64,000 nucleotides of DNA, taken from Elusimicrobiaceae bacterium. GTDB lineage: Bacteria > Elusimicrobiota > Elusimicrobia > Elusimicrobiales > Elusimicrobiaceae. The stretch lies in the NCBI GenBank assembly GCA_045612285.1, contig JAZKYS010000019.1, positions 1,447-65,446 on the forward strand, given 5' to 3'. Made by a program: the position numbers and the translations under genes. The notes beneath the pieces were generated by a model that saw only the letters and a program-made list of their open reading frames with translations, made no database searches and was not told the DNA's origin. Of this stretch, positions 3,341 to 56,673 are shown one piece after another. The stretch's first letter is position 1; each line of letters opens with the position of its first letter.

Positions 3341-3354
3341 AAGGAGTATAAAAA

Positions 3355-13663: not shown

Positions 13664-13683
13664 ATTGGTAGCTGAAGAAATAC

Positions 13684-13724: not shown

Positions 13725-13751
13725 AAATATAAGGAAAAGGAGAAAATAAAA

Positions 13752-30323: not shown

Positions 30324-31073
30324 ATGGAAAGAATTAGCAAAGAAGAATTAATTTTTGGTTTACACTCAGTTAGAGAAGCCCTTAAAACAAAAAAACGCCA
30401 GGTATCTGTTTTATATATCGTGGCAAATAAGACCGCTTCAAAACAGGTAGAAGAAGTTATCCGCCTTGCAAAAACAAATAATGTAAAAATTAAATCTTTA
30501 GAGTTAAGACTTATGGATAATCTTGCTTCCGGCGGCAATCACCAGGGCGTTATTGCAAAAGCAGAACCTATAAAAGCTATGCGTCTTTCAAGTGCAATTT
30601 ACGAAGCGCAAAACAATAAAAAAGAACTTTGGCTTGCCGTTGATGAAGTAACCGACCCGCAAAATTTAGGCTCACTTTTAAGAAGTGCGGCCTGTCTTGG
30701 CTTTACCACAATTCTGTTGCCAAAGCACAGAACTGTCGGTATAAATGCAACCGTTCATAAAGTTGCCTGCGGTGCTGTTGAAAAATTAAGAATTGTTGAA
30801 GTTTCAAATTTAAATACCGCCTTAATTGATTTAAAGGAAGAAGGCTTTTGGGTTTACGGCGCTGATATGGACGGCAAAAGCATTGTTAATTTTGATTATG
30901 CTTACCCTGCTGTTTTGATTGTCGGCTCTGAAGGCACAGGCATACGCCAAAAAACTTTGGAACATTGTGATGATGTTATCAGCATACCGCAAAAAGGTGG
31001 CGTTAGCAGTTTAAATGCTGCGGCTGCCGGCGCAATTATTATGTATGATATGTTCGCCAAAAGTTTAAAGTGA
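30324..31073 (+). CDS. rlmB: SpoU/TrmH-family 23S rRNA 2'-O-methyltransferase (RlmB-like)
   Basis: SpoU substrate-binding N-domain plus LGSEGTGI and SLNAAAAG motifs. Confidence 0.8.
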   Translation: MERISKEELIFGLHSVREALKTKKRQVSVLYIVANKTASKQVEEVIRLAKTNNVKIKSLELRLMDNLASGGNHQGVIAKAEPIKAMRLSSAIYEAQNNKKELWLAVDEVTDPQNLGSLLRSAACLGFTTILLPKHRTVGINATVHKVACGAVEKLRIVEVSNLNTALIDLKEEGFWVYGADMDGKSIVNFDYAYPAVLIVGSEGTGIRQKTLEHCDDVISIPQKGGVSSLNAAAAGAIIMYDMFAKSLK

Positions 31074-31074
31074 A

Positions 31075-31326
31075 TTTACTTCAGCTTTTGCGTTTATATT
31101 GCGTTGCGCGTCGCTCACATATGCGGGGTTGCCACCCGCTCAAGGTATACCTCATTTCTAAAAGCGCTTTTTCTAAAAGAAAAAGTTAATTAAAATTTAC
31201 TCAAAAATCCTTGTAAAACAATTTGCTCTATATAATCTTATCTAAACACAAAATCTTCGTAAAAACTTTGTATTCTGTTTAGCAAAATTAAAACGCAAAA
31301 TCCTTGTAAAACTTTATGCTGTGTTT
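31075..31326 (-). repeat. Rod-like intergenic repeat element, locus R1 (three 5' boxes, one GGCA-loop hairpin, conserved tail)
   Basis: Minus-strand reading has boxes TTTTACAAGGATTTT (31297-31311), TTTTTACGAAGATTTT (31250-31265) and TTTTACAAGGATTTTT (31203-18). Hairpin GCGGGT-GGCA-ACCCCGC at about 31117-31152. Tail ...AAACGCAAAAGCTGAAGTAAA ends at 31075. Outer helix 31086-31095/31291-31300. Confidence 0.7.
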
Positions 31327-31354
31327 AAGTCTTTTTACATTAATTGCTAGTTAA

Positions 31355-31891
31355 TTATTGAAATTCATATAATGGATATCCGCTATATCTTTCTTCCTCT
31401 ATCAAATGTCCTAATGATTGACAAATTTTTGTACCTAATTGACTAGAATTTTGTCCCATACAACGAAATTTACCCGGTCTAGACCATGAAATATAAGACT
31501 GATATTTACTTCCAAGTCCTATCTGGAAATCTCTATAAGGTTTACATGTAGAAAAATCATCACTACGACCAGGGCAATAACTAGCCAATAATACAAAGTT
31601 TGAAACAGACCATTCTATAAAAAAATCTCCGCATTTAAATGTTGCGCCTGAAATACGAGAACAAGCAGAGGGTAATTCTATATCTAAATCAGATAAATCA
31701 TTTGTATAACTTCCATTTGCTAAATAAAAAAGTTCCTCTGCTTGCACTATATTAGCCATCAATGGCAATATTGTGGAAACTTCCGATTTTACAGCTGCTA
31801 CACGATATTTGGGAACGGCAATTGCTACCAAAATACCAATAATTAAAACTACGACTAACAACTCTATAAGCGTGAAGGCACGGTTTTTCAT
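31355..31891 (-). CDS. Prepilin-type N-terminal cleavage/methylation domain protein (pilin-like)
   Basis: MKNRA|[24 protein letters not shown] with SD AAGAGG. Confidence 0.85.
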   Translation of the reverse strand: MKNRAFTLIELLVVVLIIGILVAIAVPKYRVAAVKSEVSTILPLMANIVQAEELFYLANGSYTNDLSDLDIELPSACSRISGATFKCGDFFIEWSVSNFVLLASYCPGRSDDFSTCKPYRDFQIGLGSKYQSYISWSRPGKFRCMGQNSSQLGTKICQSLGHLIEEERYSGYPLYEFQ

Positions 31892-32031
31892 ACTTTTTTA
31901 CCTCTTTTTTTCTTTTGTTCAATCGTCATTCCGGAAGGTTTTTGTCCGGAATCTCTACCGATTTTATTTTTTAAAAAATAGGAAGAGATACTGAGCAAAA
32001 ACTCCTCAGTATGACTTTATTTCATAAAGTC

Positions 32032-32058
32032 AGTTTATCAAAAAAAAAAAATACGCAA
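32032..32058 (-). promoter_or_regulatory. Candidate promoter with T12 tract in spacer (TTGCGT-a-T12-ga-TAAACT on minus strand)
   Basis: -35-like at 32053-32058, homopolymer at 32040-32051, -10-like at 32032-32037, spacer 15 nt. Homologous to the 23523-23550 block. Confidence 0.45.
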
Positions 32059-32120
32059 GCGCCCTGCTAAGACGAAGAAAAAAGCAAAAAAAGAAGAAAT
32101 ATCGTCGTAAAACAAAAAAC

Positions 32121-32147
32121 TTGATTTTCAAAAAAAAAAAAATAAAA
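32121..32147 (+). promoter_or_regulatory. Candidate promoter with A12 tract in spacer (TTGATT-ttc-A12-TAAAAT)
   Basis: TTGATT at 32121-32126, A12 at 32130-32141, TAAAAT at 32142-32147. The upstream ATCGTCGTA block is shared with 13621-13663. Confidence 0.5.
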
Positions 32148-32190
32148 TTTAATTTGTTAAGTCAATAAAACAATAGGAGAAAAAACATTT

Positions 32191-32709
32191 ATGAAATCAA
32201 ATAAAGGGTTTACACTTATAGAATTATTAGTCGTTGTCTTAATTATCGGTATTTTGGCGGCTATTGCTGTTCCGCAATATCAAATAGCTGTTGAAAAATC
32301 TAGATATTCCACCATAAAAGCCAAAACAAGAGCTATCGGTGAAGCCGTTAACAGATATTATCTTACAAAAGGTTCTTACCCCAGAGAATTTGGAGAGCTT
32401 GATATTTCTTTGTCAGATATTATAGACGCACCAAGAGTGTCCGAGGAAGCAGGCGGTTTTAGTGTTACATTTAAAACATCCAAAGGATATTCTGAGTGCT
32501 ACATATGGAGATATAATATTTTTTCTCAACTTTATTGTAGTGTTAATAACAATAAAATGCTCTTTTATTTTAATCACAAAACTATTGCTCCCAGTTTATG
32601 TAGTACTAAGAAAGACTATGAAATCGGACACAAAGTTTGCCAACAGGAAACAGGTAAAACAAAAGAAGAAGGTGAGGAATCCGGTAATTATTTTATTTAT
32701 GCTTATTAA
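32191..32709 (+). CDS. Prepilin-type N-terminal cleavage/methylation domain protein (pilin-like)
   Basis: MKSNKG|[24 protein letters not shown] with SD AGGAGA. Confidence 0.85.
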   Translation: MKSNKGFTLIELLVVVLIIGILAAIAVPQYQIAVEKSRYSTIKAKTRAIGEAVNRYYLTKGSYPREFGELDISLSDIIDAPRVSEEAGGFSVTFKTSKGYSECYIWRYNIFSQLYCSVNNNKMLFYFNHKTIAPSLCSTKKDYEIGHKVCQQETGKTKEEGEESGNYFIYAY

Positions 32710-32710
32710 T

Positions 32711-33451
32711 TTACACGCCTTTTGGCAGGCGGTCAGATAAAATCTGCGGCAGTTTCAATTTTTCAATTTTAGCTTGAACTGCTTTAATATCATAAGGCAA
32801 GCGGATAAGTCTAAAAGTATTTTTCTCGGTATCAAAAATACCAAAAGAAGCCATATTATTTGTGTCGCGTGGCTGCCCGACAGAGCCGGGATTTATCATA
32901 TATCTAATGCCAGGCATAAGTTTGATACTTACATCTTTACCGTAAAAAACATCAATTTGCGGGATATGGCCTTCCTTATAACTCATAATAAAGGGAACAT
33001 GGCTGTGGCCTACAAAACAAACATTGCCTTCCCATCTGGGCAAGTTCATAATAAATTGTTCCGGAGTTAAAAGATAATCTCTGTAAGGGTCGTAAAAAGA
33101 GCCGTGAACCATAGAAAAATGTTCACCTTGATATTCTGTCAAAAACTCGGCAATAAATCTTTTACTTCTTAAACTTAATTTTTTTGAAGTCAAAGCCATT
33201 GCTTTGCTTGCATATTCGCTAAACCAACGCGAAAAATCTTTATGGAACAAACAAACATCGTGATTGCCCATAACAGCAATTAGATTTCTTAACTTCATAA
33301 CTTCTTTGGTGCATTCTTCCGGATCAGGACCATAGCCCACCAAATCACCACAAAAGGCATAGGCATCTACTTTAAGCTCTCTCATTTTAGCTAAACAAAC
33401 TTTTAGAGCTTCATAATTAGAGTGAATATCCGAAAAAATAGCATATTTCAT
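32711..33451 (-). CDS. Calcineurin-like metallophosphoesterase
   Basis: SDIHSN, GDLVGYG, GNHD and GHSH motifs. Confidence 0.8.
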   Translation of the reverse strand: MKYAIFSDIHSNYEALKVCLAKMRELKVDAYAFCGDLVGYGPDPEECTKEVMKLRNLIAVMGNHDVCLFHKDFSRWFSEYASKAMALTSKKLSLRSKRFIAEFLTEYQGEHFSMVHGSFYDPYRDYLLTPEQFIMNLPRWEGNVCFVGHSHVPFIMSYKEGHIPQIDVFYGKDVSIKLMPGIRYMINPGSVGQPRDTNNMASFGIFDTEKNTFRLIRLPYDIKAVQAKIEKLKLPQILSDRLPKGV

Positions 33452-33472
33452 AAAATTATTTTACCAAAATAA

Positions 33473-36400
33473 TTATGCGGCTGATGCTGCTTCAACAAGT
33501 TGTTTTGTTTTAGAATCCTGCTCTTTTAAATTTAATGATAAAATTTTTGAAACGCCTTTTTCTTCCATAGTAACGCCGTAAAGCATTTGCGCAGCTTCCA
33601 TAGAGCGTTTATTATGGGTAACAACAATAAACTGTGTCTTAGCGGAAAATTCTTTTATCAAATTGACAAAGCGTTCAACATTGGCTTCATCAAGCGGAGC
33701 ATCGGCTTCGTCCAAAATACAGAACGGAGAAGGACTATGCGTAAAGAACGCAAACAGCAAAGAGACTGCCGTTAAGGCCTTTTCCCCGCCGGACATTGCA
33801 GAAATTGTTAAAAGTTTTTTGCCGGGTGGTTGGGCGATAATTTCTATACCGGTTTCAAGTAAGTTTTCAGGATCGGTAAGTTTAAGTTCGGCCTCGCCAC
33901 CGCGGAAAAGTATTTGATAAATTCTCTTAAAATGCGTGCGCACTTGGTCAAAAGTATATTTAAAGTTTTCTTTTGTCGTTGCGTTAATTTTAGAAATAGC
34001 GGCTTTTAAATCTTTTTTAGCATTCTGCAAATCTTCAATTTGCTTCTTTAAGAACTCATTTCTTTGAGTTAAGGCGTCGTATTCTTCCGGCGCGGTCATA
34101 TTAACAGCGCCCATATTTTCAATACGCTTGCGCATCATTTTGACTCTTTCAAGGTCAACGGTTTTACCTTCGCACTTCATTTGAGCTTCTTGGGGTGTTG
34201 TGTTCCAAGATTCAAGCAAAGTGTTAACGATTGCCGTTTTTTGCCTGCGGTGATTAGTTAAATTATTTTCTAACTCTTGTGCTTTTAAAGCAAGTTCGCC
34301 GGAACGGGTTTTATTTTTATTTAAAGCGGTAATTTTATTATTATATTCCGTCTTTAAAACATTTAAGTCGCCGCGCATTTTATTTTCAGATGTTTCAAGT
34401 GCGGCAAGATTATCGCGGCAGGCAGCAAGTTTTGCTTGGGAAGTAAGTTTTTCTTCCTGCAAGGTTTTTATTCTTGCTTCGGCGGCAGTTGTTTCCTGCG
34501 TGCGTTTTGTTTTGGCTTCAAGCAAAGTTGTCTGTTCGCCCGCGGTGGTTTTATAGTCAAGTTCAATATTATTCTTTTTGATTTTTATTTCATAAAGTTT
34601 GGTATTGGCTTTTTCTATTTCCACTTTTAAAGTTTGTTCTTCTTGTTCCAAAGCTGCCCTTTTAGCGTGCAAGGCCTCGTGTTGTTTTTTGGCTTCTTCA
34701 TGCTGATTGTTAAGGGCGTTTAATTCGTCTTTAAAAGTTTGGACTTTGGCTTTGCGTTTTTCAACGCGGTCCAAAATTTCTTGTTTATTATTGACGATTT
34801 GCTTGCTTGCCTGTTCTAAATCATTTAAAAGTCTTTGCTTATTGTTTAAATTATTTTGCAAAGAGTTTAAAGATAAAGATTCTTCCTGAAATTTATTTCT
34901 GGCCGTCTTAAGCAAATCTTCCGTCCTGGCAAGGTCATCAATATTTTTTAGAGTTTGCTGGGTAAGTTCTTCTTGCTCTTTATTTAATTCTTTAAGTTCG
35001 GCTTTGGCAGATTCTTCTTTACCCCAATAGGCTTCCGGCGATTCTACACCGACGGCACCGGCAGAAAGCCAAAAACCGCAATTTACTTTGCCTTCCGTGC
35101 TGCTAGCATTACCTAAAATATAATTAACTAAGGGGCGTAGATTTTCCGCACAATTTATTTTTGCGGATAAATCTTGGGCGCTGTTTGAGCCTTGCGGAAC
35201 AGCATTTAAAAGGATAAAGCGGCATCTTGTTTTGCCGTTTTGCTTTAAGATTTGTTCGGCTTGATTAAAAGCATTTTCATTTTCGCAAACTACGGAATCA
35301 AGATATTTACCGAAGGCTTCTTCAAAGGCAAGTTCCAAAGTTTTATCAAATTTAAGATTCTTTCTAAGAGTGCCAAGCACGCCGGGTATTTGGGCATCTT
35401 CCACAAGTTTTGTGCCGACCCAATAAGGATTATTTTTGCCCTGTGTTTGTATCATTTGCATTTTGGTATTAAGGGCGGCTTGTTTTGTTTTTAGAGTTGT
35501 TAACTTATCGTTTAACTCTTGTTTTTGGTTTTGGAGTTTTTGTCTTTGTTCTTCCAAATTTGTTTGTTCTTGGCGGAGTTTTTCAACTTCCTGTTTTTTG
35601 GTTTCAAGGGAAGTTTTAATTGTTTCTAATTCTTTTTTAACTTCTTCAAGTTGCACTTTTTGCGCAGTTAAAGAACGTTCAAGATTGATTAAATTATTAT
35701 TTTCGTGCTGGGCGGCGGATTCTTCAAGAGCGATTTTGCCGCTTAATTCCATTTCTTTATGGGTAAAGCCCATTAAATTATTTGTTGCTTTTTCAAAATC
35801 TTGTCTGATTTGCAAAATTGCCTGCTCGTTAGCACTAACCTGCTGATATTTATTATTATATTCCTGTTGGGCAGGTTCAAGTTGCAAAGTAATTTCTTCA
35901 AGTTTCTTTTTTAAGTTAGCTAGTGCCGGTTCAATTTCGCCTAGTCTGCTTAAACTTAAAGTTTCTTCGGAAGCAAAATTTTTAAGTCGGGCTTGAAGTT
36001 CTTGGGCCATATTTTCGCAATTTTGTATTGCGCCTTCTAAAAGACCAATTTGGTATTTATCTGCGGCAATTTTTTCGCTAAACTCGCTTAATTGTTTTTG
36101 CTTGTGGGTTAAATTTAAGTCTAATGCGGCGGTTTCGCCTTCGGCCGCGCTGATAGTGCTTTGCAAATCTTCTTTTTCTTTTAAAACGGGTTCAAGTTCG
36201 GCCGCGATTTTATTTATTTGTTCTTCGTGTATTTTAATATTTTCAAGGCACAAAATAATTTCACTTTCTTTTAATTCTTCGCGGTATTTTTGGTAAAGGC
36301 GCGCTTTGCGGGCTTCGCCGTCAAGTTTTTTGATTTGCTCTTCAAGTAAAGCAAGGGTATCACTTAAGCGGGCAATATCCATATCTACTCTTTCAAGACG

Positions 36401-36937
36401 GCGGACTGCTTCATCCCTTTTTGCTTTGTATTTGGAAACGCCGGCAACCTCTTCAAACATTTCGCGTCTTTGTTCAGGGGAGGCCTCTAACATTTGATGG
36501 ACTGAGCCCTGGTCAATAATAGCATAACCTGCCCCGCCGATACCGGTATCTAAAAACATTTCCCTAATATCTTTAAGACGGCAAGGCACGCGGTTTAAGA
36601 AATATTCGCTTTCCCCCGAGCGAAAGATTTTGCGTGATACTGTCACCTCATTAAATTCCACCGGCAATTTGCGCGAAGTATTATCAAAAATCATATTAAC
36701 TTGCGCCATATTTAAAGGCGGGCGTGTTTTGGTGCCGTTAAAAATAATATCAACCATAGAGCCGGAGCGAAGTGCCTTCCAAGACATTTCGCCAATACAC
36801 CAACGCACAGAATCTATAACATTTGATTTGCCGCAGCCGTTTGGCCCTACAATACAAGATACGCCGGGTTCAAAATTAAGGCGCATTTTATCTGCAAAAG
36901 ATTTAAAACCGATTATTTCAATTGCTTTAAGATACAT
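33473..36937 (-). CDS. smc: Chromosome segregation protein SMC
   Basis: Walker A GPNGCGKSN, long coiled coils, hinge, signature LSGGEK and Walker B ILDEADAPLD. Confidence 0.95.
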   Translation of the reverse strand: MYLKAIEIIGFKSFADKMRLNFEPGVSCIVGPNGCGKSNVIDSVRWCIGEMSWKALRSGSMVDIIFNGTKTRPPLNMAQVNMIFDNTSRKLPVEFNEVTVSRKIFRSGESEYFLNRVPCRLKDIREMFLDTGIGGAGYAIIDQGSVHQMLEASPEQRREMFEEVAGVSKYKAKRDEAVRRLERVDMDIARLSDTLALLEEQIKKLDGEARKARLYQKYREELKESEIILCLENIKIHEEQINKIAAELEPVLKEKEDLQSTISAAEGETAALDLNLTHKQKQLSEFSEKIAADKYQIGLLEGAIQNCENMAQELQARLKNFASEETLSLSRLGEIEPALANLKKKLEEITLQLEPAQQEYNNKYQQVSANEQAILQIRQDFEKATNNLMGFTHKEMELSGKIALEESAAQHENNNLINLERSLTAQKVQLEEVKKELETIKTSLETKKQEVEKLRQEQTNLEEQRQKLQNQKQELNDKLTTLKTKQAALNTKMQMIQTQGKNNPYWVGTKLVEDAQIPGVLGTLRKNLKFDKTLELAFEEAFGKYLDSVVCENENAFNQAEQILKQNGKTRCRFILLNAVPQGSNSAQDLSAKINCAENLRPLVNYILGNASSTEGKVNCGFWLSAGAVGVESPEAYWGKEESAKAELKELNKEQEELTQQTLKNIDDLARTEDLLKTARNKFQEESLSLNSLQNNLNNKQRLLNDLEQASKQIVNNKQEILDRVEKRKAKVQTFKDELNALNNQHEEAKKQHEALHAKRAALEQEEQTLKVEIEKANTKLYEIKIKKNNIELDYKTTAGEQTTLLEAKTKRTQETTAAEARIKTLQEEKLTSQAKLAACRDNLAALETSENKMRGDLNVLKTEYNNKITALNKNKTRSGELALKAQELENNLTNHRRQKTAIVNTLLESWNTTPQEAQMKCEGKTVDLERVKMMRKRIENMGAVNMTAPEEYDALTQRNEFLKKQIEDLQNAKKDLKAAISKINATTKENFKYTFDQVRTHFKRIYQILFRGGEAELKLTDPENLLETGIEIIAQPPGKKLLTISAMSGGEKALTAVSLLFAFFTHSPSPFCILDEADAPLDEANVERFVNLIKEFSAKTQFIVVTHNKRSMEAAQMLYGVTMEEKGVSKILSLNLKEQDSKTKQLVEAASAA

Positions 36938-36983
36938 GGGGAAAATTCCTATAAAAAAATTAGGCGCAAAATGCCCTATTTAT

Positions 36984-37000
36984 ATCATACTAAATTTGGG
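36984..37000 (-). promoter_or_regulatory. Candidate smc promoter (AAATTTAGTATGAT motif)
   Basis: Minus strand reads CCCAAATTTAGTATGATATAAAT. The same AAATTTAGTATnAT block is upstream of the 37576 and 42247 gene starts. Confidence 0.4.
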
Positions 37001-37066
37001 GTGTTTTATAAAGAAGATATAACAATATTTTGTATAGGAAAAATATCATTTTAGTTAAAAGGAATT

Positions 37067-37576
37067 TTACCCCTGATAGGTAAAGCCCTTTTTCTCTAAA
37101 TAATCTCTTAAGGCTTGTTTATTTTGTGCAGTTAATACATCTATATGAAATTTATAGGCCTTTTCATCTTTTGTTCTAAAGACAAGGCAATTATCGCGAA
37201 GGGACTGACTTTTAGCCAAATCTGTTATATTGCTGTTTAATAAAGAAGCGACACTTCTCTTTTCGTAAATAATAGCAACTATTTGTGAATACGGCACAGA
37301 AAAAGGTGCAATAATACCTTCGTCATTTAAAGCAATAATTGTTTTAGGTTTTATAAAGCGTATAAAGAAAAAGATATCAGAAATTAATTCTATTAAAATT
37401 ACACCCGTAAAAATTTTATAGACAAGGCCCATATTAGGAACTAATTTAAAATGAATAAATAAAAAGGCAAGTACTATCGTGCATATTGTTACACAAACGG
37501 CGCAACATAAACTTACATATTTGTTTTGATAGAATTTTATTGTTCCATCGGACAAAACTTTCATTTTTTGGGTCAT
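37067..37576 (-). CDS. Hypothetical membrane protein
   Basis: 169-aa ORF with two TM helices then a soluble domain. No family recognised. Confidence 0.5.
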   Translation of the reverse strand: MTQKMKVLSDGTIKFYQNKYVSLCCAVCVTICTIVLAFLFIHFKLVPNMGLVYKIFTGVILIELISDIFFFIRFIKPKTIIALNDEGIIAPFSVPYSQIVAIIYEKRSVASLLNSNITDLAKSQSLRDNCLVFRTKDEKAYKFHIDVLTAQNKQALRDYLEKKGFTYQG

Positions 37577-37613
37577 TTTAATCTCCGTTTTTATGACTTG
37601 TGATTATGGATAT

Positions 37614-37630
37614 ATAATACTAAATTTGAG
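37614..37630 (-). promoter_or_regulatory. Candidate promoter (AAATTTAGTATTAT motif) for 37067-37576 gene
   Basis: Minus strand reads CTCAAATTTAGTATTATATATCC, about 40 nt upstream of the start codon. Confidence 0.4.
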
Positions 37631-37660
37631 ATGTTTTTTAAAGAGAAAAAATGGAATAAA

Positions 37661-38025
37661 CAAAGCAAATGATTTTGCAAGGATTTTTGTGGAAATTTTA
37701 ATTAACTTTTTCTTTTAGAAAAAAGCGGTTCTTTCAAACGAGGTATACCAAGAGGGGGCGGCAGCCCCGAGTATCCGAAGGCTTTAAAAAATAAAAACTA
37801 GTCCAAAAGCCGAAGTAAAAGTTTTGCGAGGATTTTGCGTTTAGAGAACGAAACAAATTTTATCTAAACAGAGCATATAGTTTTACGAGTATTTTGAGGT
37901 TAGTTTTAATTAATTTTTTCTAAAGAAAAAATGTTTTAAAAAATGAGGTATACCTAGAGCGGACGGCAGTCCCGCGTATCCGAAATTTTTTAAAAATTAA
38001 AACTAGCCCAAAAGACGAAGTAAAA
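37661..38025 (+). repeat. Rod-like intergenic repeat elements, locus R2 (two tandem full units plus a partial unit)
   Basis: Unit 1 is 37661-37820 and unit 2 is 37866-38025, with about 75% identity. GGCA-loop hairpins at 37740-37779 and 37945-37984. Unit 2 outer helix 37901-37911/37995-38005 (11/11). Box 37881-37896 is complementary to tail 38009-38025. Confidence 0.75.
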
Positions 38026-38026
38026 A

Positions 38027-41000
38027 TCAGGAGTCTTGTTTGGAGATGGACATCATCAACTTAATACGGTTAACTTGGTTTGTTTCGCTGGCGCCGGGGT
38101 CATAGTCAACGGCGATAATATTGGCACTTGGGTAGCGTTTTTTAATTTCTTTAATAAAACCTTTGGCAATAATATGGTTGGGCAAGCAGCCAAAAGGTTG
38201 AACGCATAAAATATTGCGAACGCCGGCTTCAAGAAGTTCAACGATTTCGGCTGTTAAGAGCCAGCCTTCGCCCGCCTGATGACCTAAAGAAGCAATACCG
38301 CGCACTTTACGGCGAAGTTTCTTAAAAGAACCAAACGGTTCAAAATGTTTAGATAATTTTAAACCGATACGCTGTGGCAAGCGGAATAATTCTATAACTA
38401 AAAGACCAAGACGGCTAAACAAACTATCTTTTAATTTACCCGTTAAATAGCGGTGGCGGAAAATATGGTCATAAAAACCATATAAAATAAAGTCAAGAAG
38501 ACCGGTTATAACGACTTCGCCGCCTTCCTGCTCAATAATTTGAGCGGCATTATTATTTGCGTCGGGGTGATATTTAAGTAAAATTTCGCCAACTATACCA
38601 ACGCGCGGTTTCCTTTTTTGGCGTTTAAGCGGAATTTTATCAAAATCTCTAATCATAGCAAAAATATTATATAGGAAAGTAAACAAATTGCCGTTTTTGA
38701 TATTTTTATGAATACGCTTTAGCCATTTTTGCTCTAAAGCATCTGTTGCGCCTTTTTCTTTTTCATAAGGGCGCATACGACAGGTTAGAGCGAGTAAAGT
38801 ATCGCCATAACAACCAAGCATTAAAATACGCAAGAAAACTTTGCGACCTGGGGCAAAACCGGTATTTGCTTTTTTACCGCTTACATTTAAAGCAATAACA
38901 GGGATATGGGATAAATTGCATTGGGCAAGCGCTTTTCTAAGAAGCCAAGTATAATTTGAAGCACGGCAACCGCCATTAGTTTGGGAAATAAGCAAAGCAA
39001 TTTTATGTGTATCATAATTGCCGTCTTGTATCGCTTTTAATAATTGCCCTATAACAACAATAGCCGGGTAGCAAACATCGTTATTGACATGTTTTAAACC
39101 GAGTTCTATTGCCTCTTTGCTAACGTGCGGTAATTGCACAAGTTTATAACCTTCACTTGCAAAAACATTTTCAATAAATTGGAAATGTAAAGGCGACATT
39201 TGCGGCACTAAAATTGTGTGGGTCTTTTTCATTTCAGGGGTAAAGATAGCAAATTTTTCTTTATCACTTTGACTAGTAAGATAGTCTTGCGGTTGTCTAT
39301 CGCGCATAGCAGCCAAAAGTGAGCGTATGCGTATTTTGGCAGGGCCTAAATTATCGCCTTCATCTATTTTAATTTGGGCATATAAACGCCCTTTACTGCT
39401 GACGATTTCTTCCGTCTGATCTGCCGTAATAGCATCAAGTCCGCAACCAAAAGAAACAAGTTGCAAAATAGCCAAATTATCTTGCTTTGCCACAAAAGCA
39501 GCAGCACGGTAAAGTCTTGCGTGATAAGTCCATTGATCGCGCACTTTTAAAGGCCCTGGGTCCGGTTGTAAATGAGCAACACTATCTTCAGTTAAAACAG
39601 CAAGACCGCAAGAATTGGCAAGTTCGGGTATGCCGTGATTTATAGCCGGGTCAATATGATAAGGGTGACCGCTTAAAACGATACCGAGCTTACCTTGCGC
39701 TTTTAATTCCTCAACGGCTTTTGCACCGGCTTCGTGAATATCTTTAGTATATTTTCTTTGTTCGGCAAAGGCTTTTTTAACCGCTTTAGCAAGTTGCTCT
39801 TTAGTAAACTTTTTAAATAAATCAACTTTTTTAAGACGCTTTGCCAAAACTCTTTCATCCAAAGGCAAGAAAGGACAATAATAAGGAATATTCCTTTCCG
39901 CAATTTCTGTAATATTTTTGAAAAGCAGCTCCGGGTAGCCGGCAACTATCGGGCAATTATAGGAATCTTCCTGAGAAGAAAAATCTTTCTTTTGTAAAAT
40001 AATTGACGGGAAGAAAATTGCATCAACTTTTTTGCTAAGCAAATTCATAATATGACCGTGCGCCATTTTTGCAGGATAACAAATTGTTTGTGAAGGTATT
40101 GAACTATAACCTTCAAAGAAAAGTTTCTTGGAAGATGCTTCCGATAATTCAACTTTAAAGCCAAGTTCGCTAAGTAAAGTAAACCACAAAGGATAAGTTT
40201 CAAACATATCAAGCGCACGCGGAATACCGATAGTGCCGTTTTTTGCTTCCTTTGAGGATAAGGGTTTATAATAATTAAACAAGCGGTTATATTTATATTC
40301 CGCTAAATTGATATGTTTGCTTTTAGGTTGTCCCGCACCGCGTTCGCAACGATTGCCGGAAATAAAATTTTCCTTCCCGCCGAAATTACTGATAGTTAAA
40401 GCACAATGATTTGTGCAACCTTGACAGCGGACATTGCGGGTAGTTATTTTTAAATTATCTATTTCTTCTTTTGAAAGTAGAGCCGTTTTTTTACCGTTTT
40501 CAGGCCCGCGCTTTTTGGCAATTAAAGCCGCACCGAAAGCACCCATTAAACCCGATAAACTCGGCCTGATAATTGTTTTACCTACTTGCAACTCAAGTGC
40601 TCTAAGTAAAGCATTATTTAAGAAAGAACCGCCTTGCGCAACAATCGTATCGCCAAGTTCTTCAACATTTCTGATTTTAATAACTTTATAACAGGCATTT
40701 TTTATGACGGAATAAGAAAGTCCTGCTGCAATATCGCCAACGGGCACGCCTTCTTTTTGCGCTTGCTTTACTTTAGAGTTCATAAAGACGGTGCAGCGGG
40801 TGCCAAGGTCAACAGGATTTTTTGCTTTTAAAGCGGCTTCAACAAATTGTGGCAGTTCCATATTAAGCGATTTGGCAAAATTTTCAATAAAAGAACCGCA
40901 ACCGGCAGAGCAGGCCTCGTTTAAACCGATATGGTCTATTGCGCCGTTTTTTAAGGACATACATTTGATATCTTGTCCGCCGATATCTAAAACAAAGGTA

Positions 41001-42247
41001 GCTTTTGGTGCGAAGAATGTTGCCGCCGTGCAATGGGCAATAGTTTCAACTTCGTCAATATCAAATTTTAAGCCGGCTTTTAAAAGAGCGCTGCCATAAC
41101 CTGTGGCGGCGGCGGCTTTGATTTCAAGCCCCGGTTTTTTACGGGAGTAAATTTCCTGTAAAATTTTTATTGCGATTGTAAAAGGATCGCCATTATTTGA
41201 GCCGTAAGAAGAATATAAAACGCGGTTTTGCTCGTCTATCAAAACGGCTTTTATTGTTGTGCTGCCGCTATCAATACCCAAGTAAGCAGGGCCTTCATAT
41301 TCTTCTAAAGGAAAAGTTTTAACATCACTTTTTTGGTGGCGTTTTAAAAATTCTTTTTCTTCTTTTTCGTTTTTAAATAAAGGCGGTAATTTTTGAATAT
41401 CTTGGTCTGTTTTTAAATCTTTTAAATCGTCTATAATTTTGGGTAAAGAATATTCTTGTTCGGTATGCCTTAAAGCATATAAAGCAGCACCGATTGCAAC
41501 AAAAATTTCTGCTTTTTGGGGAAAAATTGCGTGCTTATCATCTAAATTAAGCGTTTTGACAAAGCATTTGCCAAGAGATTTTAAAAAGGATAAAGGACCG
41601 CCTAAAAAGACAACTGTTCCTTCTATCTTGCGGCCTCTTGCAAGCCCGCCGATAAATTGGTTTACAACGGCCTGCATAATGGAAAGGGAAATATCACTTT
41701 TAGTGCAACCTTCGTTAATTAAAGGGACAATATCTGTTTTGGCAAAAACACCGCAACGCGATGCAATGGGGTAAACATTTTTTGCTTCAAGCGCAAGCGC
41801 GTCCATTTGCGGAACTTCCAAATTTAAGAAGGAAGCCATTTGGTCAATAAAGGCCCCTGTTCCGCCGGCACAAGTTTCGTTCATTCTTAAATCTGTGCCA
41901 TTGGTTAGGAAGGTGAGTTTAGCATCTTCCCCGCCGAGTTCTACTATAACATCGGCATTAGGAATTCTATTTTTTATACTTAAACCCGAAGCAATAACTT
42001 CCTGAACGAAATTTAAGTTTAATTTTGAATATAAGGTTAAAGCGCCTGAACCTGTTAAAGCCAAGCGAAAGGAATAATTTGGAAATTTAGTTTGAACTTC
42101 TTGTAAAATAGCAATAATTTTTTGGCGAACTTCTGACATATGGCGCTGATAAGTGGAAAATAAAATTTCTTCCTTATCATCTATAACAACCACTTTTACC
42201 GTTGTAGAGCCGACATCAATACCAATATTTAAAATCTTTTTTTCCAT
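38027..42247 (-). CDS. Fused BadF/BadG/BcrA/BcrD-type ATPase x2 plus CoA-substrate-specific enzyme activase/DUF2229-type domains (2-hydroxyacyl-CoA dehydratase-activase-related)
   Basis: Two actin-fold ATPase modules (GIDVGSTTVK and GIDSGSTTIKAV) each with Cys cluster ligands, followed by large C-terminal domains. 1406 aa. Confidence 0.8.
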   Translation of the reverse strand: MEKKILNIGIDVGSTTVKVVVIDDKEEILFSTYQRHMSEVRQKIIAILQEVQTKFPNYSFRLALTGSGALTLYSKLNLNFVQEVIASGLSIKNRIPNADVIVELGGEDAKLTFLTNGTDLRMNETCAGGTGAFIDQMASFLNLEVPQMDALALEAKNVYPIASRCGVFAKTDIVPLINEGCTKSDISLSIMQAVVNQFIGGLARGRKIEGTVVFLGGPLSFLKSLGKCFVKTLNLDDKHAIFPQKAEIFVAIGAALYALRHTEQEYSLPKIIDDLKDLKTDQDIQKLPPLFKNEKEEKEFLKRHQKSDVKTFPLEEYEGPAYLGIDSGSTTIKAVLIDEQNRVLYSSYGSNNGDPFTIAIKILQEIYSRKKPGLEIKAAAATGYGSALLKAGLKFDIDEVETIAHCTAATFFAPKATFVLDIGGQDIKCMSLKNGAIDHIGLNEACSAGCGSFIENFAKSLNMELPQFVEAALKAKNPVDLGTRCTVFMNSKVKQAQKEGVPVGDIAAGLSYSVIKNACYKVIKIRNVEELGDTIVAQGGSFLNNALLRALELQVGKTIIRPSLSGLMGAFGAALIAKKRGPENGKKTALLSKEEIDNLKITTRNVRCQGCTNHCALTISNFGGKENFISGNRCERGAGQPKSKHINLAEYKYNRLFNYYKPLSSKEAKNGTIGIPRALDMFETYPLWFTLLSELGFKVELSEASSKKLFFEGYSSIPSQTICYPAKMAHGHIMNLLSKKVDAIFFPSIILQKKDFSSQEDSYNCPIVAGYPELLFKNITEIAERNIPYYCPFLPLDERVLAKRLKKVDLFKKFTKEQLAKAVKKAFAEQRKYTKDIHEAGAKAVEELKAQGKLGIVLSGHPYHIDPAINHGIPELANSCGLAVLTEDSVAHLQPDPGPLKVRDQWTYHARLYRAAAFVAKQDNLAILQLVSFGCGLDAITADQTEEIVSSKGRLYAQIKIDEGDNLGPAKIRIRSLLAAMRDRQPQDYLTSQSDKEKFAIFTPEMKKTHTILVPQMSPLHFQFIENVFASEGYKLVQLPHVSKEAIELGLKHVNNDVCYPAIVVIGQLLKAIQDGNYDTHKIALLISQTNGGCRASNYTWLLRKALAQCNLSHIPVIALNVSGKKANTGFAPGRKVFLRILMLGCYGDTLLALTCRMRPYEKEKGATDALEQKWLKRIHKNIKNGNLFTFLYNIFAMIRDFDKIPLKRQKRKPRVGIVGEILLKYHPDANNNAAQIIEQEGGEVVITGLLDFILYGFYDHIFRHRYLTGKLKDSLFSRLGLLVIELFRLPQRIGLKLSKHFEPFGSFKKLRRKVRGIASLGHQAGEGWLLTAEIVELLEAGVRNILCVQPFGCLPNHIIAKGFIKEIKKRYPSANIIAVDYDPGASETNQVNRIKLMMSISKQDS

Positions 42248-42275
42248 TATTTTATGCTTTTCCCCTTAGACATAA

Positions 42276-42292
42276 ATTATACTAAATTAAGA
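42276..42292 (-). promoter_or_regulatory. Candidate promoter (TTAATTTAGTATAAT) for the 1406-aa gene
   Basis: Perfect TATAAT (plus-strand ATTATA at 42276-42281) about 25 nt upstream of ATG, with SD AAGGGGA. Confidence 0.45.
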
Positions 42293-42319
42293 GTGTTCAA
42301 TAAATATATACAATTAATG

Positions 42320-42521
42320 TTTTTACAAGGATTTTTCATTTAGAACAAATCTAGTTTTGCAAGGATTTTTTAGATAAATTAAATTTAAACAGAGCGAATT
42401 ATTTTATCAAGTATTTTGATTTTAGAGAAGGCGCAAGGAGCGAAGCATATCCCGAGAGGGTGGCAACCCCGTATATGTGAGCGACGAGCAACGAACTATA
42501 AAATCAAAAGACGCAGATAAC
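42320..42521 (+). repeat. Rod-like intergenic repeat element, locus R3 (three 5' boxes plus alpha-type body)
   Basis: Boxes at 42320-42336, 42355-42371 and 42402-42417. Outer helix TATTTTGATTTT 42412-42423 / AAAATCAAAAGA 42500-42511. Hairpin GGGT-GGCA-ACCC at 42446-42477. Followed by terminator 42522-42551. Confidence 0.7.
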
Positions 42522-42551
42522 AAAAAGCACTTCTTTTTGAGAAGTGCTTTT
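42522..42551. terminator. Bidirectional intrinsic terminator (3' of tRNA-Ala; also 3' of element R3)
   Basis: AAAAA-GCACTTC-tttttga-GAAGTGC-TTTT. Confidence 0.75.
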
Positions 42552-42555
42552 AAAA

Positions 42556-42631
42556 TGGTGGACCTGAACGGGATCGAACCGATGACCTCCTGCATGCCAT
42601 GCAGGCGCTCTCCCAGCTGAGCTACAGGCCC
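42556..42631 (-). tRNA. tRNA-Ala (anticodon GGC), CCA encoded
   Basis: Manual cloverleaf: GGGCCTG acceptor with G3:U70 Ala identity pair, anticodon stem CCTGC/GCAGG with loop ATGGCAT, T loop TTCGATC, and 3' ACCA. Confidence 0.9.
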
Positions 42632-42639
42632 GTAAATAT

Positions 42640-42669
42640 ATTATAGCAAATAAATTTTGAAATTGGCAA
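42640..42669 (-). promoter_or_regulatory. Candidate tRNA-Ala promoter (TTGCCA-18-TATAAT)
   Basis: Minus strand has TTGCCA (42664-42669) and TATAAT (42640-42645), 8 nt before the mature 5' end. Confidence 0.5.
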
Positions 42670-42695
42670 ATTAAAAACATAAAAGTTTTTTAATT

Positions 42696-42704
42696 TGATA
42701 TACT
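42696..42704 (+). promoter_or_regulatory. Extended -10 promoter element (TGaTATACT) driving leader RNA copy B
   Basis: Same motif and spacing to the 5' hairpin as copies A and C. Confidence 0.55.
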
Positions 42705-42709
42705 AAAAT

Positions 42710-42975
42710 TGTAAGTAGTTTTTACTTACATAAAAATTTAATCTGTTTTTGGAACCTTGTAAAAACAAGGATAGCTTTTGAGAAATCAAAAGCCATAGCG
42801 AAGTCCAAGAACAGCTCGTTATTAGGCACAGGACAAACGGCTTAATTACCCGCTTGTTTTGTGCCGAGTGTTTGCCGTTCTTTTAGAACGGCAAACTACG
42901 GCTGTTATATTTTTTGGTCACTTCGCTAGGCTAAAATATAGCAGCCGTCTTTCATAAGTTCCAAAAACAGTAAGA
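42710..42975 (+). ncRNA. Structured 5' leader RNA, copy B (candidate cis-regulatory RNA of pilin-like gene)
   Basis: 5' hairpin 42711-42729, invariant 23-mer 42731-42753. Hairpins 42755-42770, 42774-42793, 42825-42865 and 42870-42896. Long-range pair 42793-42804/42920-42930, helix 42898-42913/42933-42948, and 12/12 closing helix 42743-42754/42959-42970. Confidence 0.75.
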
Positions 42976-42984
42976 GAGGAATTT

Positions 42985-43518
42985 ATGAAAAACAAAAAAG
43001 GCTTTACTCTTATTGAAATACTTGTTGTTGTTTTAATTATCGGTATTTTAGCAGCGATAGCTGTGCCGCAATATCAAAAATCAGTATGGAAAAGTAGGGC
43101 TACAGGTATGCTCTTTAATTTAAAATCACTACATGAAGCAGTTAAAGTTTATCAATTAGCAAATAGCGCAAATCCATCAAATATAAATAAATTAGATATT
43201 TCCCTTAATAATTATAAACAAGCTTGTGTAAACACAGGACCGAGTTTTACCGAATCATCTTGTAAGGCAGATAAATATTCAAATTTATTTCTAAACATAA
43301 ATACAAACACTGGAAAAGGAACCGGAGAAGTTTTTTCACAATTTAATATAGGTCCTTATAAAAGTGGCGGTTTTTCAATAGCAGGTAATACTGTTATATG
43401 TTGGGAATACCCCTCATATATTAGTTTGAAAGGAGATTTTTGTAAAAAAATAATGGGTTGCCAACCAAGATCAGGCATAACAACTGAAGGCAGGCAATTC
43501 CTCTGTCCAAATTTATAA
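42985..43518 (+). CDS. Prepilin-type N-terminal cleavage/methylation domain protein (pilin-like)
   Basis: MKNKKG|[24 protein letters not shown] with SD AGAGAGGA. Confidence 0.85.
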   Translation: MKNKKGFTLIEILVVVLIIGILAAIAVPQYQKSVWKSRATGMLFNLKSLHEAVKVYQLANSANPSNINKLDISLNNYKQACVNTGPSFTESSCKADKYSNLFLNINTNTGKGTGEVFSQFNIGPYKSGGFSIAGNTVICWEYPSYISLKGDFCKKIMGCQPRSGITTEGRQFLCPNL

Positions 43519-43557
43519 AATAAAGACCTTCGGGAATGACAATTTTATCTTTTACAA

Positions 43558-43614
43558 CCCACCCTTTTATCACTTCCATAATTTTTTTGCTAACGCAAAA
43601 AAGTCAAGGGTGGG
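43558..43614 (+). repeat. CCCACCC/GGGTGGG hairpin module (copy 2)
   Basis: CCCACCCTT 43558-43566 pairs with AAGGGTGGG 43606-43614. Inner hairpin TTTTTTGC-taac-GCAAAAAA at 43583-43602. Covaries with the CCCTCCC/GGGAGGG copies. Confidence 0.6.
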
Positions 43615-43641
43615 AAATAATAGGAAATTTAAAAAACTAGC

Positions 43642-43778
43642 GACACAGAGCATATAGTTTTACAAGTATTTTGCGTTTAGAGTAGGCGCAACCGAGGAAG
43701 AGTATACTGTGAAAGGCCGGCAGGCCGAAGTATCCGACCGAGGTTGCAACGCACTATAAACGCAAAAGACGAAGTAAA
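43642..43778 (+). repeat. Rod-like intergenic repeat element, locus R4 (single alpha-type unit)
   Basis: Box at 43658-43672. Outer helix TATTTTGCGTTT 43667-43678 / AAACGCAAAAGA 43758-43769. Hairpin GGCC-GGCA-GGCC within 43700-43737. Tail ...GACGAAGTAAA ends 2 nt before the tolB stop codon. Confidence 0.7.
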
Positions 43779-43780
43779 TA

Positions 43781-45079
43781 CTAGTTGCTCCAGCAGGGGG
43801 TAAAGGAATTCCCCCCAATATTCGCAATCAAATGTTGTGCGCTGCCGTCGGCATCCATAACATAAATTTGGCGTCTGCCACCGCGGGTGGTGGTAAAGGA
43901 AATAAAGCGACCGTCAGGCGACCAGAAAGGGTCTTCATTATTACCGCTGTCTGCGGTAAGTTGTCTGATTTGGGAGCCTGTGATATCAACTAAAAATAAA
44001 TCTATCGGGTGGTTTGGCGCTTGGCGGCCGGCAAAAACAATCCAATCGCCGCTGGGGGACCATTGGGGTGTATCTGTCCAATTAAATTTAGTTAAACGGC
44101 GGGTTTGTTTTGTAGTTAAATCCAAAACATAAATTTGAGGATTGCCCGAACGGTTTGAAACATAGGTGACAAATTTGCCATCCGGTGAAAAAGAAGGTGA
44201 ACCGTCAACGCCGTATTTATCGGTTAATTGCCTTAAATTGCCCGTATCAAGTTCTTTAACGAAGATGCTGGCATTTTCCCCGCGGGACATTGTAAAAACA
44301 ATTTTGGAATCATCCGGCGAAACACCGCCAATCAAATTTAAGCCTTCACCTTTGATTAAAGATCTGATTTTACCTGCTTTTAAATCAATATAGAAAATAT
44401 CCGGGTTATTATTGCGGTAAGTAGTATAGAAAATTTTTGTGCCGTCGCTATTCCAGCGCGGTAAAAGGGTGATACTTTTATCTTTTGTTAGTTTGGTTAA
44501 ATTATAGCCGTCATAATCAACCATAAAAATTTCTTTATAACCGGCGGAATCATTGGCAAAAGCAATTTTGGTATCGGCAATACCGCGTTTGCCTTGTAAA
44601 AGTTGGACCACTTGGTCGCTAAACAAATGGGCTAAACGCCTGAGCCCTTTTTGAGAACTTACAAATCTTTTAGCTAAAACTGCTTTTTGGCTTTGCGTAT
44701 CATAAACAAAAGCCTTTAATTCCCAAGCATTATTTTGGTTTAAAGAAACTTCGCCAAACAAAAGATAATCTGCTTTTTTTGAACGGGCTAAATCCAAAGA
44801 AGAAGCCATATTTTTTGTATCAATAAAACCAATATTTTCTTCCAAATTAAAATATCTTGAACGCATTAAATCAGAACGAACGACATTGCTTAAAAGGTTG
44901 GCTGTTTCTTGTGTTTTTTCATCGCCTTCGGTATATCTAAAAGAACCTAAAGCAATTTTAGGTAAAGCGTTTGGGTCGTATTTAGAAGAAATACCGATAT
45001 AAACATCGCTATTTCTGGCAAAACAAAATAAAGGACATAGCAAAAATGCTATGAATAATAAGAGTTTTAAATTTTTCAT
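43781..45079 (-). CDS. tolB: Tol-Pal system beta-propeller protein TolB
   Basis: Signal peptide, TolB N-domain and repeated PD40/WD40-like blades (SPDG..., WSPDG...). Confidence 0.9.
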   Translation of the reverse strand: MKNLKLLLFIAFLLCPLFCFARNSDVYIGISSKYDPNALPKIALGSFRYTEGDEKTQETANLLSNVVRSDLMRSRYFNLEENIGFIDTKNMASSLDLARSKKADYLLFGEVSLNQNNAWELKAFVYDTQSQKAVLAKRFVSSQKGLRRLAHLFSDQVVQLLQGKRGIADTKIAFANDSAGYKEIFMVDYDGYNLTKLTKDKSITLLPRWNSDGTKIFYTTYRNNNPDIFYIDLKAGKIRSLIKGEGLNLIGGVSPDDSKIVFTMSRGENASIFVKELDTGNLRQLTDKYGVDGSPSFSPDGKFVTYVSNRSGNPQIYVLDLTTKQTRRLTKFNWTDTPQWSPSGDWIVFAGRQAPNHPIDLFLVDITGSQIRQLTADSGNNEDPFWSPDGRFISFTTTRGGRRQIYVMDADGSAQHLIANIGGNSFTPCWSN

Positions 45080-56638: not shown

Positions 56639-56673
56639 ATTTTACCTCAAAAACACTCAAAATGACAAAGCGC

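Follow-up and report, generated by a model that had tools for sequence, protein, structure and literature searches.

This analysis concerns a repeated element in the genome of an Elusimicrobiaceae bacterium (assembly GCA_045612285.1, contig JAZKYS010000019.1), of which a stretch of 64,000 nucleotides was analyzed and is referred to here as the window. Two complete copies lie in one intergenic gap, at positions 37657-38025 of this stretch, and they belong to a family that recurs elsewhere in the window and in related assemblies. The element is a lineage-specific, non-coding, interspersed mosaic repeat, carried by one clade of Elusimicrobiaceae from gut and rumen, and what is conserved among its copies is the folded shape, not the sequence. 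Because each intact unit folds as a long imperfect hairpin, the units are called rods in what follows. Our preferred reading, to which we give a probability of about one half, is that the rods are a non-autonomous interspersed repeat of the same kind as miniature inverted-repeat transposable elements (MITEs), enterobacterial repetitive intergenic consensus (ERIC) elements or bacterial interspersed mosaic elements (BIMEs), and that they are propagated by way of a folded single strand.

This reading builds on the family itself, its covarying fold, its intergenic position, its gain, loss and replacement, and the polarity of its arrays, all of which are observed directly. It is favored because the copies are many and diverged, because units have been gained, lost and replaced, because remnants, chimeras and nested units occur, because near-identical copies are found in genomes with 10-20% divergence between their genes, and because the mismatches within the helices are symmetric with respect to strand. 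A preliminary description of this DNA had left the choice between a mobile family, resembling MITEs or repetitive extragenic palindromic (REP) sequences, and a multicopy small RNA. The family is indeed multicopy and structured, and the mobile branch of this choice is the favored one, in a form that is neither a classical MITE nor a REP.

The Unit and Its Variants

A full unit measures 140-170 nt, contains no open reading frame (ORF), and consists of an unpaired leader followed by two arms that pair as an imperfect hairpin of ~46 bp. The leader (AAACAGAGCAAAT), which is conserved on each unit and had not been listed before, precedes helix P1 (6 bp), an internal loop (5' side RA, 3' side GAA), helix P1b (2 bp) and an A/G mismatch. 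Helix P2 then runs for ~19 bp, containing a bulged A and a single position occupied by A.G or G.A, up to an optional A/T-rich side hairpin, P3. Beyond it come P4, of 10 bp, another GA/GAA loop, P5 (GG:CC, then a bulged U and AUAC:GUAU), a further internal loop, and P6 (4-5 bp) with its tetraloop, so that the C-GA-GG/CC-GAA-G loop is present twice per rod. This anatomy was drawn by hand on one copy (L024:7592-7752; labels of this type denote loci outside the window) and then checked on the alignments. RNAalifold, run on a MAFFT alignment, returned the inner helices only, and the outer ones derive from the hand-drawn structure and from realignment with a covariance model (CM).

All four parts named in the preliminary description were found: the 5' box, the A/T hairpin, the GGCA hairpin and the tail. 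Two of them are less rigid than was proposed. The side hairpin is optional, being missing from 16 of 67 aligned copies; where it exists, it always has at least 6 bp (51/51), and its basal pairs covary (GT:AC in 20 copies, GC:GC in 18, AC:GT in 5). The GGCA loop, described as invariant, is so within the window, whereas family-wide the tetraloop is of the type G-N-N-A (GGCA, GGGA, GAGA, GATA, GGTA), or is expanded or replaced. The frequency of GGCA outside the window is to be read with care, since the search pattern imposed this loop on most of those copies; the ones recovered by the CM alone carry a GGGA, GAGA, GATA or GGTA loop, an expanded apical hairpin, or some other apex. As a side observation, a longer apical insert (GGCAACACAAAGTTTGTGCCCAC) stands in place of GGCA in L008:3670-3853, L065:320-498, L052:1-159, L064:92-279 and L033:32-199.

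The arms themselves come in interchangeable versions: an A/T-rich type A, a G+C-richer type B, and a third core, GGTATAG..CTATCC, that lacks GGCA. The two ends of the element form an imperfect inverted repeat: TTTTGC-AA-GG-A-TTTTG agrees with the reverse-complemented tail at 14/17 positions, and the outermost 6 bp vary and covary between copies.

Covariation and Strand

The strongest argument for the fold is found in the alignment of 110 distinct rows that was built with the CM. Standard pairs occupy 93.2% of the cells, where shuffling the partners gives 81.8% and sliding them 39-58%; compensatory changes are seen at 38 of the 46 pairs, and the covariation score is 0.262 against 0.03-0.04. The alignment had been fitted to the hand-drawn structure, and these figures lean towards it accordingly, yet the slid controls and the raw sequences still show the pairing plainly. 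The outermost helix is the most variable of all and nevertheless remains paired: TTTTGC:GCAAAA, GGC:GCC, TTAGC:GCTAA, TGCC:GGCA and CCTTTTTCAAGG:CCTTGAAAAAGG are all found there. The fold must matter for the propagation or the retention of the element.

Which strand carries the fold is a separate question. G-U and A-C mismatches occur in 77 and 107 cells, respectively, or 76 and 68 once a single subfamily-wide C.A site is set aside; there is no strand asymmetry, as expected if single copies decay neutrally.

Several motifs that the rod might have contained were considered and rejected. No small ORF of the type I toxin kind is conserved in the rods, and the AAACGAGG subfamily lacks the ATG of AAATGAGG. 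The GA/GAA loops are not kink-turns, for which a 3-nt bulge would have to precede GA, a register at odds with the covarying GG:CC pairs. A CsrA-type GGA site in the 5' box (CAAGGAT) was dismissed as well, because its GG covaries with the tail (GT:AC, AG:CT) and the GGA is therefore not conserved. Finally, the resemblance of GGCAC variants to a sigma-54 promoter fails on spacing, and the bases in question are a variant of P1.

Family Size and Host Range

An exact pattern scan over one genome per species, whose counts are lower bounds, returned at least 80 loci; among the matches listed, 79 come from ten Elusimicrobiaceae/Elusimicrobia assemblies and 1 is a chance match. The host assemblies derive from goat, sheep and cattle rumen and from human gut. 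The CM gave 112 matches in these listed loci plus the window, of which 103 were analyzed as forward-strand copies. About 100 copies thus reside in ten other assemblies, and the density in this clade of gut and rumen Elusimicrobia is ~1 per 10 kb.

In the window, the CM finds six full copies at five loci, with the apical stems that had been proposed (GGGGC:GCCCC, CGGAC:GTCCCG, GGGT:ACCC twice, GGCC:GGCC and GGCT:AGCC). The core pattern has 5 matches in this stretch against 0.03 expected, and the tail pattern 5 against 0.57. Beside several of the full copies lie additional units reduced to the 5' box.

How far does the family extend? A relative whose TolB protein is 82% identical has rods right after the stop codon, while no rod lies in the ~20 kb surrounding TolB relatives of 67%, 63% and 57% identity (Elusimicrobium minutum Pei191 in the last case). 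Because these more distant neighborhoods lack rods, the family looks confined to one clade, on what is a small sample of genomes. Searches of known families gave nothing comparable: in Rfam only two tRNAs of the window pass the gathering threshold, and with E-value thresholds the best match in 37560-38060 scores 22.8 bits against a threshold of 50. Phage and plasmid collections (blastn) and viral contigs (pattern scan) contain no match, a full-text search of the literature found no description of the repeat, and the family is apparently undescribed.

Several copies sit at the ends of short contigs, and these repeats probably break assemblies. At contig ends of one assembly (L023 1-394 and L027 1-200), whole units are arranged in tandem with a period of 140 nt.

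The Two Units at 37657-38025

The gap lies between a gene of 169 aa (37067-37576, minus strand) and one of 1406 aa that encodes a CoA-enzyme activase (38027-42247, minus strand). Two units had been placed at 37661-37820 and 37866-38025, and the CM matches them at 37657-37820 and 37865-38025; the partial unit that had been noted in the same gap is also there. The part-by-part coordinates are collected in Table 1.

The proposal that the whole unit folds as a long rod holds for the second unit and fails for the first. Unit 2 forms one rod with its side hairpin at a minimum free energy of -44.1 kcal/mol (z -7.54; the reverse complement reaches z -4.8), and its inner 11/11 helix, 37901-37911:37995-38005, is exact (TAGTTTTAATT/AATTAAAACTA). 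Unit 1, of full length by sequence, does not fold in this way (z +0.70), because its 3' arm comes from another subfamily and the two arms mismatch each other. In the syntenic copy of L020, the 3' arm pairs with its own 5' arm. Unit 1 is thus a chimeric or decayed copy. At this locus L020 and L059 carry full type-B units, whose first 28 nt match the 28 nt that follow unit 1 in the window (37821-37848); the partial unit at 37821-37864 is a 3'-truncated type-B remnant.

Unit 2 ends 1 nt before the convergent 1406-aa gene's stop codon (38027-38029) and is 99.4% identical to L059:827-987.

Two minor observations touch on the genes of this locus. A promoter-like repeat (TATATAATACTAAATTTGAGATGTTTT, plus-strand reading) lies just upstream of three minus-strand genes, at 36981-37014, 37611-37644 and 42273-42306. 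The activase has a weak Pfam match to DEDD_Tnp_IS110 (31 bits), which most likely reflects a fold shared with the BcrAD/BadFG ATPase domain and not a transposase.

Gain, Loss and Replacement

The comparison of orthologous regions, which the preliminary description had proposed as a check, provides filled and empty sites. A solo unit of L080 corresponds to ~20 unrelated nt in the orthologous spacer of L034. L081-L084, with ~85% DNA identity to the window, lack a block of 1106 bp (42672-43777) that comprises a pilin gene with its leader, a second palindrome and a rod, and that ends 1 nt from the TolB stop codon. Likewise, where the window has a 1.65-kb block (31074-32710) with two pilin-like genes and a rod array, L059 has an 86-bp spacer with a terminator; the corresponding spacer between the Metallophos and SpoU genes in L081 measures 67 nt by gene calls. 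The copies are thus neither restricted to the loci first described nor fixed in position, and it is the combination of ~100 copies elsewhere with polymorphic sites that favors the mobile branch.

Replacement is best seen after the activase stop codon, where four genomes (the window, L020, L059 and L081) have four different sets of units. In each of them the last unit is intact and abuts the stop codon, and the units upstream of it are truncated at their 3' end. The same polarity prevails over all loci: of the solo 5' boxes no more than 400 nt away from a full unit, 63 are upstream and on its strand, 13 are downstream and on its strand, and 5 are on the opposite strand. Duplication of whole units in tandem also occurs.

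When syntenic copies of different species are compared, identities of 59% to 99% are obtained, and some pairs differ by whole subfamilies. At the upper end of this range two pairs of rods are more alike than their surroundings: unit 2 and its L059 counterpart share 99.4% against 86-90% for the flanking genes, and L047 and L055 share 98.7% against 77-81%.

Genomic Context

Rods are intergenic, and an overlap of more than 40 nt with a called ORF is seen in just 2 of the 103 copies. The downstream gene, in the orientation of the element, is convergent in 65 of 92 cases. For ~30 of the 103 copies, the distance from the tail to the convergent stop codon is -5 to +7 nt, and no terminator intervenes; in a second group this distance is 45-62 nt and a canonical terminator is interposed. 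In some copies (L016, L045, L022) the stop codon falls inside the 3' strand of P1, whose 5' strand is complementary to it. Rods also abut the 3' ends of tRNA genes. In this compact genome, convergent genes often abut or overlap without a terminator even where no rod is involved (32709/32711, which are 1 nt apart; 16490-16512; 19087-19090), and the tight packing of the rods may therefore reflect general streamlining and not a targeting rule.

The copies occur on both strands among housekeeping genes. Units of the same contig tend to share their orientation, with 25 array pairs in the same direction and 10 in opposite directions (p ~0.02, for pairs that are not independent), as counted at L004/L016/L044, L046/L050/L059, L038/L057, L039/L061, L022/L077, L056/L075 and in the window. 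A single-strand mechanism linked to replication is no more than hinted at by this, and the shared orientation may reflect a bias in the direction of replication or of the genes.

The commonest neighbors are pilin-like genes, recognizable by an N-terminal methylation motif, and a normal terminator often separates such a gene from the unit. The window contains six of them (3355-3873, 13638-14243, 23045-23485(-), 31355-31891(-), 32191-32709 and 42985-43518; those starting at 3355, 13638 and 23045 were identified by the N-terminal motif only), and their presence varies between relatives. Pilin-like genes share a conserved upstream leader of ~250 nt (window 3113-3354, 42723-42984 and 63808-63845, with genes at 3355 and 42985) and a 142-nt N-terminal coding block; the leader matches no Rfam family at the gathering threshold and could be a conserved regulatory 5' untranslated region. 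In L090 a rearrangement breakpoint coincides with pilin-like modules that adjoin tRNA genes.

Comparison with Known Repeats

MITEs are taken here as defined in PMC3184786, where it is also reported that many such repeats lie at gene 3' ends and that ERIC and Correia elements, besides being mobile, are active at the RNA level. The rods are short (under ~400 bp), non-coding and multicopy, and their insertions are polymorphic between relatives. No flanking target-site duplication was found, and their complementary ends, with outermost bases that vary and covary, are ambiguous as terminal inverted repeats, so that the rods fall outside the classical definition. A parent insertion sequence (IS) or transposase with the same ends was found neither in the window nor near the ~100 copies.

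The closest counterparts in appearance are ERIC sequences, or intergenic repeat units, and Correia repeat enclosed elements (CREE), the MITE-like imperfect palindromes of ~100-160 bp of Enterobacteriaceae and Neisseria. Like these, the rods are non-coding, intergenic, often at gene 3' ends, similar in size, and able to form long stem-loops; they reach dozens of copies or more per genome, and their presence differs between relatives. They differ in that no TA or other target-site duplication was found, that their terminal bases are the most variable ones and covary, that copies within a genome are only ~76% alike, that 5' remnants form polar arrays, and that there is no sequence similarity.

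With BIMEs the rods share a mosaic construction, with interchangeable arms, an optional side hairpin, different core types and a nested palindrome; they too cluster in intergenic regions, and their hairpin structure matters. REPs measure 20-40 bp and carry a GTAG or CGTC tag (PMC3733652). The rods, at 140-170 nt, have no such tag and are not arranged as inverted pairs, and no REP-associated tyrosine transposase (RAYT) was seen, nor any Y1/HUH domain in the window.

A third comparison is with the palindrome-associated derivatives of IS200/IS605 elements. These move as single-stranded DNA by means of HUH transposases, have a sub-terminal hairpin of their own at each end, and use a fixed target of 4-5 nt. 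The rods resemble them in the lack of a target-site duplication, in a probable dependence on a folded hairpin, and in the weakly shared orientation described above. They differ in that their two ends pair with each other, in that no fixed target is seen, and in that no TnpA was found. By analogy, a mechanism of this palindrome-associated type is what the rods most plausibly work like.

How the Element Might Spread

In our preferred reading, the rods are non-autonomous DNA that moves or recombines, and spread would depend on a folded single strand, either a DNA hairpin, a transcript or both, and not on a fixed terminal sequence, which would explain why subfamilies keep their pairing while the sequence drifts. 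An enzyme acting in trans would move the single-stranded hairpin intermediate; a folded DNA strand such as that of IS200/IS605-type elements or of attC sites is the most economical idea. Copies accumulate at gene 3' ends, individual sites see units added, swapped or partly deleted, and the outcome is the polar array, with 3'-truncated 5'-box remnants upstream of one intact unit at a convergent stop codon. A unit that is transcribed may in addition serve its neighbor genes as a stable 3'-end RNA hairpin, and a mobile repeat and a structured RNA are not exclusive readings.

Several results weigh against mobility of this kind. The first are the missing traces of the process itself. Target-site duplications were looked for in the flanks and none was found: the longest match between flanks has a mean of 5.4 nt against 4.8 nt in shuffled pairings, and the two long matches that were inspected (L007; the L023/L027 array) are tandem-duplication or array junctions. 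No enzyme has come to light, either. The preliminary description had reported no transposase or RAYT gene in the window, and this stands: 41 of its proteins, scanned directly, have no transposase, HUH or RAYT Pfam domain, and for most of the remaining genes the precomputed Pfam annotation of the L081 and L090 orthologues shows none. Nor is there a partner enzyme among the recurrent neighbors of the ~100 copies, in ~0.5 Mb of element-bearing loci; the ORFs that do recur there (pilin-like, TPR, ABC-F, BipA, subtilase and similar) were rejected as transposase candidates. The mean pairwise identity within a genome is 76%, just 6 of 100 copies have a neighbor of at least 95% identity in their own genome, and these comparisons give no sign of a recent burst of copies.

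The second group of results concerns the copies once they are in place. Nearest-neighbor copies differ at 6.0% of paired sites and at 15.1% of unpaired ones, that is, 2.5 times less, and double changes that keep a pair exceed independence ~5-fold by our own estimate. Most of these fall in P6 and P4, and 14 are in the terminal helices P1/P1b, whose strands are ~130 nt apart. Taken together, the slower change of paired sites and the double changes look like selection on the fold at resident copies. Stability favors the forward strand in 62 of 78 copies, with a mean advantage of 2.6 kcal/mol, and the conserved loops are purine-rich on this strand, with the A.G/G.A swap at one position. In addition, 14 of 36 pilin-like genes have a unit within 450 nt downstream, and all 14 units are in forward orientation. 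The purine loops, the swap, the forward stability and the 14:0 orientation fit a strand-specific, RNA-like role.

Alternative Readings

These latter points are the core of the most serious alternative, which we still hold to be unlikely: that the rods are structured small RNAs, or cis-acting RNA modules, made from the forward strand, in a family that has grown by duplication and whose remnants are dead. The intact rod would, for example, bind a protein, with the GA/GAA and GNNA loops as recognition features. Covariation is strong in every helix, the C-GA-GG/CC-GAA-G loop recurs, loop variants stay within G-N-N-A, unit 2 is more stable in the forward direction, and a canonical terminator often lies 3' of the tail. 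An RNA would however be expected to tolerate G-U pairs, and these are not above A-C. It would also need to be transcribed: no conserved sigma-70-type promoter recurs before the leader (49 sites against 38±7 in shuffled sequences), a consensus scan of 30900-44000 flags no rod as a terminator, the tails end in A-runs, and in ~30 copies the tail runs straight into the convergent gene. Many copies are chimeric, truncated or nested, one subtype takes the place of another at the same site in related genomes, and Rfam has no matching family.

A bolder reading, and a long shot in our estimation, is that the rods are no selfish repeats but working parts of an undescribed folded-single-strand system, be it a hairpin recombination site, similar to attC though with no integron, that would insert and exchange pilin-like modules directly behind resident stop codons, or RNA rods bound by a dedicated protein partner. 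This would account for the hypervariable yet complementary terminal helix and for the 14:0 orientation next to pilin-like genes.

Very doubtful is the view of the rod as a folded single-strand recombination site, similar to attC or to a Xer hairpin, at which gene modules, especially pilin-like cassettes, would be inserted or exchanged beside resident genes. An attC site, including those of the VCR type, is an imperfect inverted repeat of 57-141 nt in which the folded strand, and not the sequence, is conserved, as in the rods, and its core consensus is GTTRRRY/RYYYAAC. The rods also have unpaired bases, a variable apical part and adjacency to stop codons, and their termini, GTTTTGC...GCAAAAC, fit this consensus in 5 of 7 positions. 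Blocks made of one or more pilin-like genes and a rod are present or absent as units, with the tail 0-1 nt from a stop codon; for SpoU methylase and TolB the residue at the end of the protein is unchanged with respect to orthologues without the element. The sole recombinase of the window is an XerC/D-like tyrosine recombinase (54294-55172). This gene, however, lies beside recA like an ordinary housekeeping copy, with the same synteny in L090; of the ~100 rods only 14 adjoin pilin-like genes; and the others are dispersed on both strands among housekeeping genes, with no intI and no cassettes arrayed in one direction next to an integrase. No recombination junction could be mapped.

Equally hard to credit is that the rods are non-mobile 3'-end structures (terminators, insulators or stabilizers), acting mainly in the reverse-strand 3' untranslated region of the gene they abut: the prevalence of convergent neighbors, the ~30 tails at stop codons without another terminator, the second group with one, the contacts with tRNA 3' ends, and an extremely compact genome, in which retained DNA is probably useful, all agree with it, but neither strand has a T-run after the hairpin, tandem and divergent gene contexts also occur (25/74), reverse-strand loops would be pyrimidine-pyrimidine mismatches, and presence/absence and subtype replacement need some mobility.

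Significance

Elusimicrobia are poorly studied and hard to culture, and this repeat adds an apparently undescribed element to them. In genomes as compact as these, where non-coding DNA is scarce, it accounts for an appreciable part of that DNA, and its sites are places at which species differ in gene content, particularly in pilin-like genes. The class of object is a familiar one, and its mechanism is inferred; what makes it a clear case is that the fold, and neither the sequence nor the termini, is conserved over ~100 diverged copies. The rods are thus a system for asking what maintains such hairpins, be it single-strand transposition or recombination, or a function as RNA. The CM and the structure will ease genome-wide annotation and tests for transcripts.

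Copies and Remnants in the Window

The proteins encoded in the window are ordinary Elusimicrobiaceae housekeeping proteins, and the rods lie among their genes as listed in Table 1.

Table 1. Rods, their parts and their remnants in the 64,000-nt window
Feature	Positions	Strand	Remarks
Array	31074-31340	minus	full unit 31074-31234 (71.8 bits, hybrid core); two 5'-box-only remnants upstream, ~31235-31340
Unit 1	37657-37820	+	CM 146.4 bits; full length by sequence
Unit 1, leader	37657-37672		
Unit 1, 5' box	37673-37688		
Unit 1, side hairpin	~37704-37727		
Unit 1, core	37740-37779		GGCA loop 37760-37763
Unit 1, tail	37804-37820		
Partial unit	37821-37864	+	28-nt 5' arm of type-B unit (37821-37848, GTTTTGCGAGGATTTTGCGTTTAGAGAA), then 16-nt spacer
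Unit 2	37865-38025	+	CM 164.5 bits; intact rod
Unit 2, leader	37865-37880		
Unit 2, P1	37881-37886:38020-38025		
Unit 2, P1b	37889-37890:38015-38016		
Unit 2, P2	37892-37911:37995-38013		
Unit 2, side hairpin P3	37913-37920:37925-37932		
Unit 2, P4	37935-37944:37985-37994		followed by GA/GAA internal loop
Unit 2, P5	37947-37953:37976-37981		
Unit 2, apical P6			GGCA loop 37965-37968
Array	42303-42521	+	two 5'-box-only remnants (42303-42385), then full type-B unit 42386-42521 (49.1 bits)
Full unit, G+C-rich arms	43642-43779	+	51.9 bits; core GAGTATAC..GGCC GGCA GGCC..GTATCCGA
Full unit with nested repeat	56673-56906	+	103.4 bits

The tail of the 31074-31234 unit abuts the stop codon of the SpoU methylase gene (gene end 31073), with a pilin-like gene upstream on the same strand. 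The type-B unit at 42386-42521, with core GAAGCATATCC..GGCA..TATATGTGAGCG and P1 = TTATC:GATAA, is followed by a terminator and then by the 3' end of a tRNA-Ala gene; at this locus L081 has a different core type. The unit at 43642-43779 lies downstream of the pilin-like gene 42985-43518, and its tail is 1 nt from the TolB stop codon (43781-43783).

The unit at 56673-56906 holds, in the loop of its side hairpin, a second palindromic repeat of ~85 nt (56727-56810), which is found again at 43555-43635 and at L007 4745-4815. Its form is CCC(A/T)CCC...TTTTTGCTAA(C/T)GCAAAAAAGTCAAGGG(T/A)GGG, and twice it is followed by a 3'-arm remnant of a rod. This repeat may be a further module of the mosaic system.

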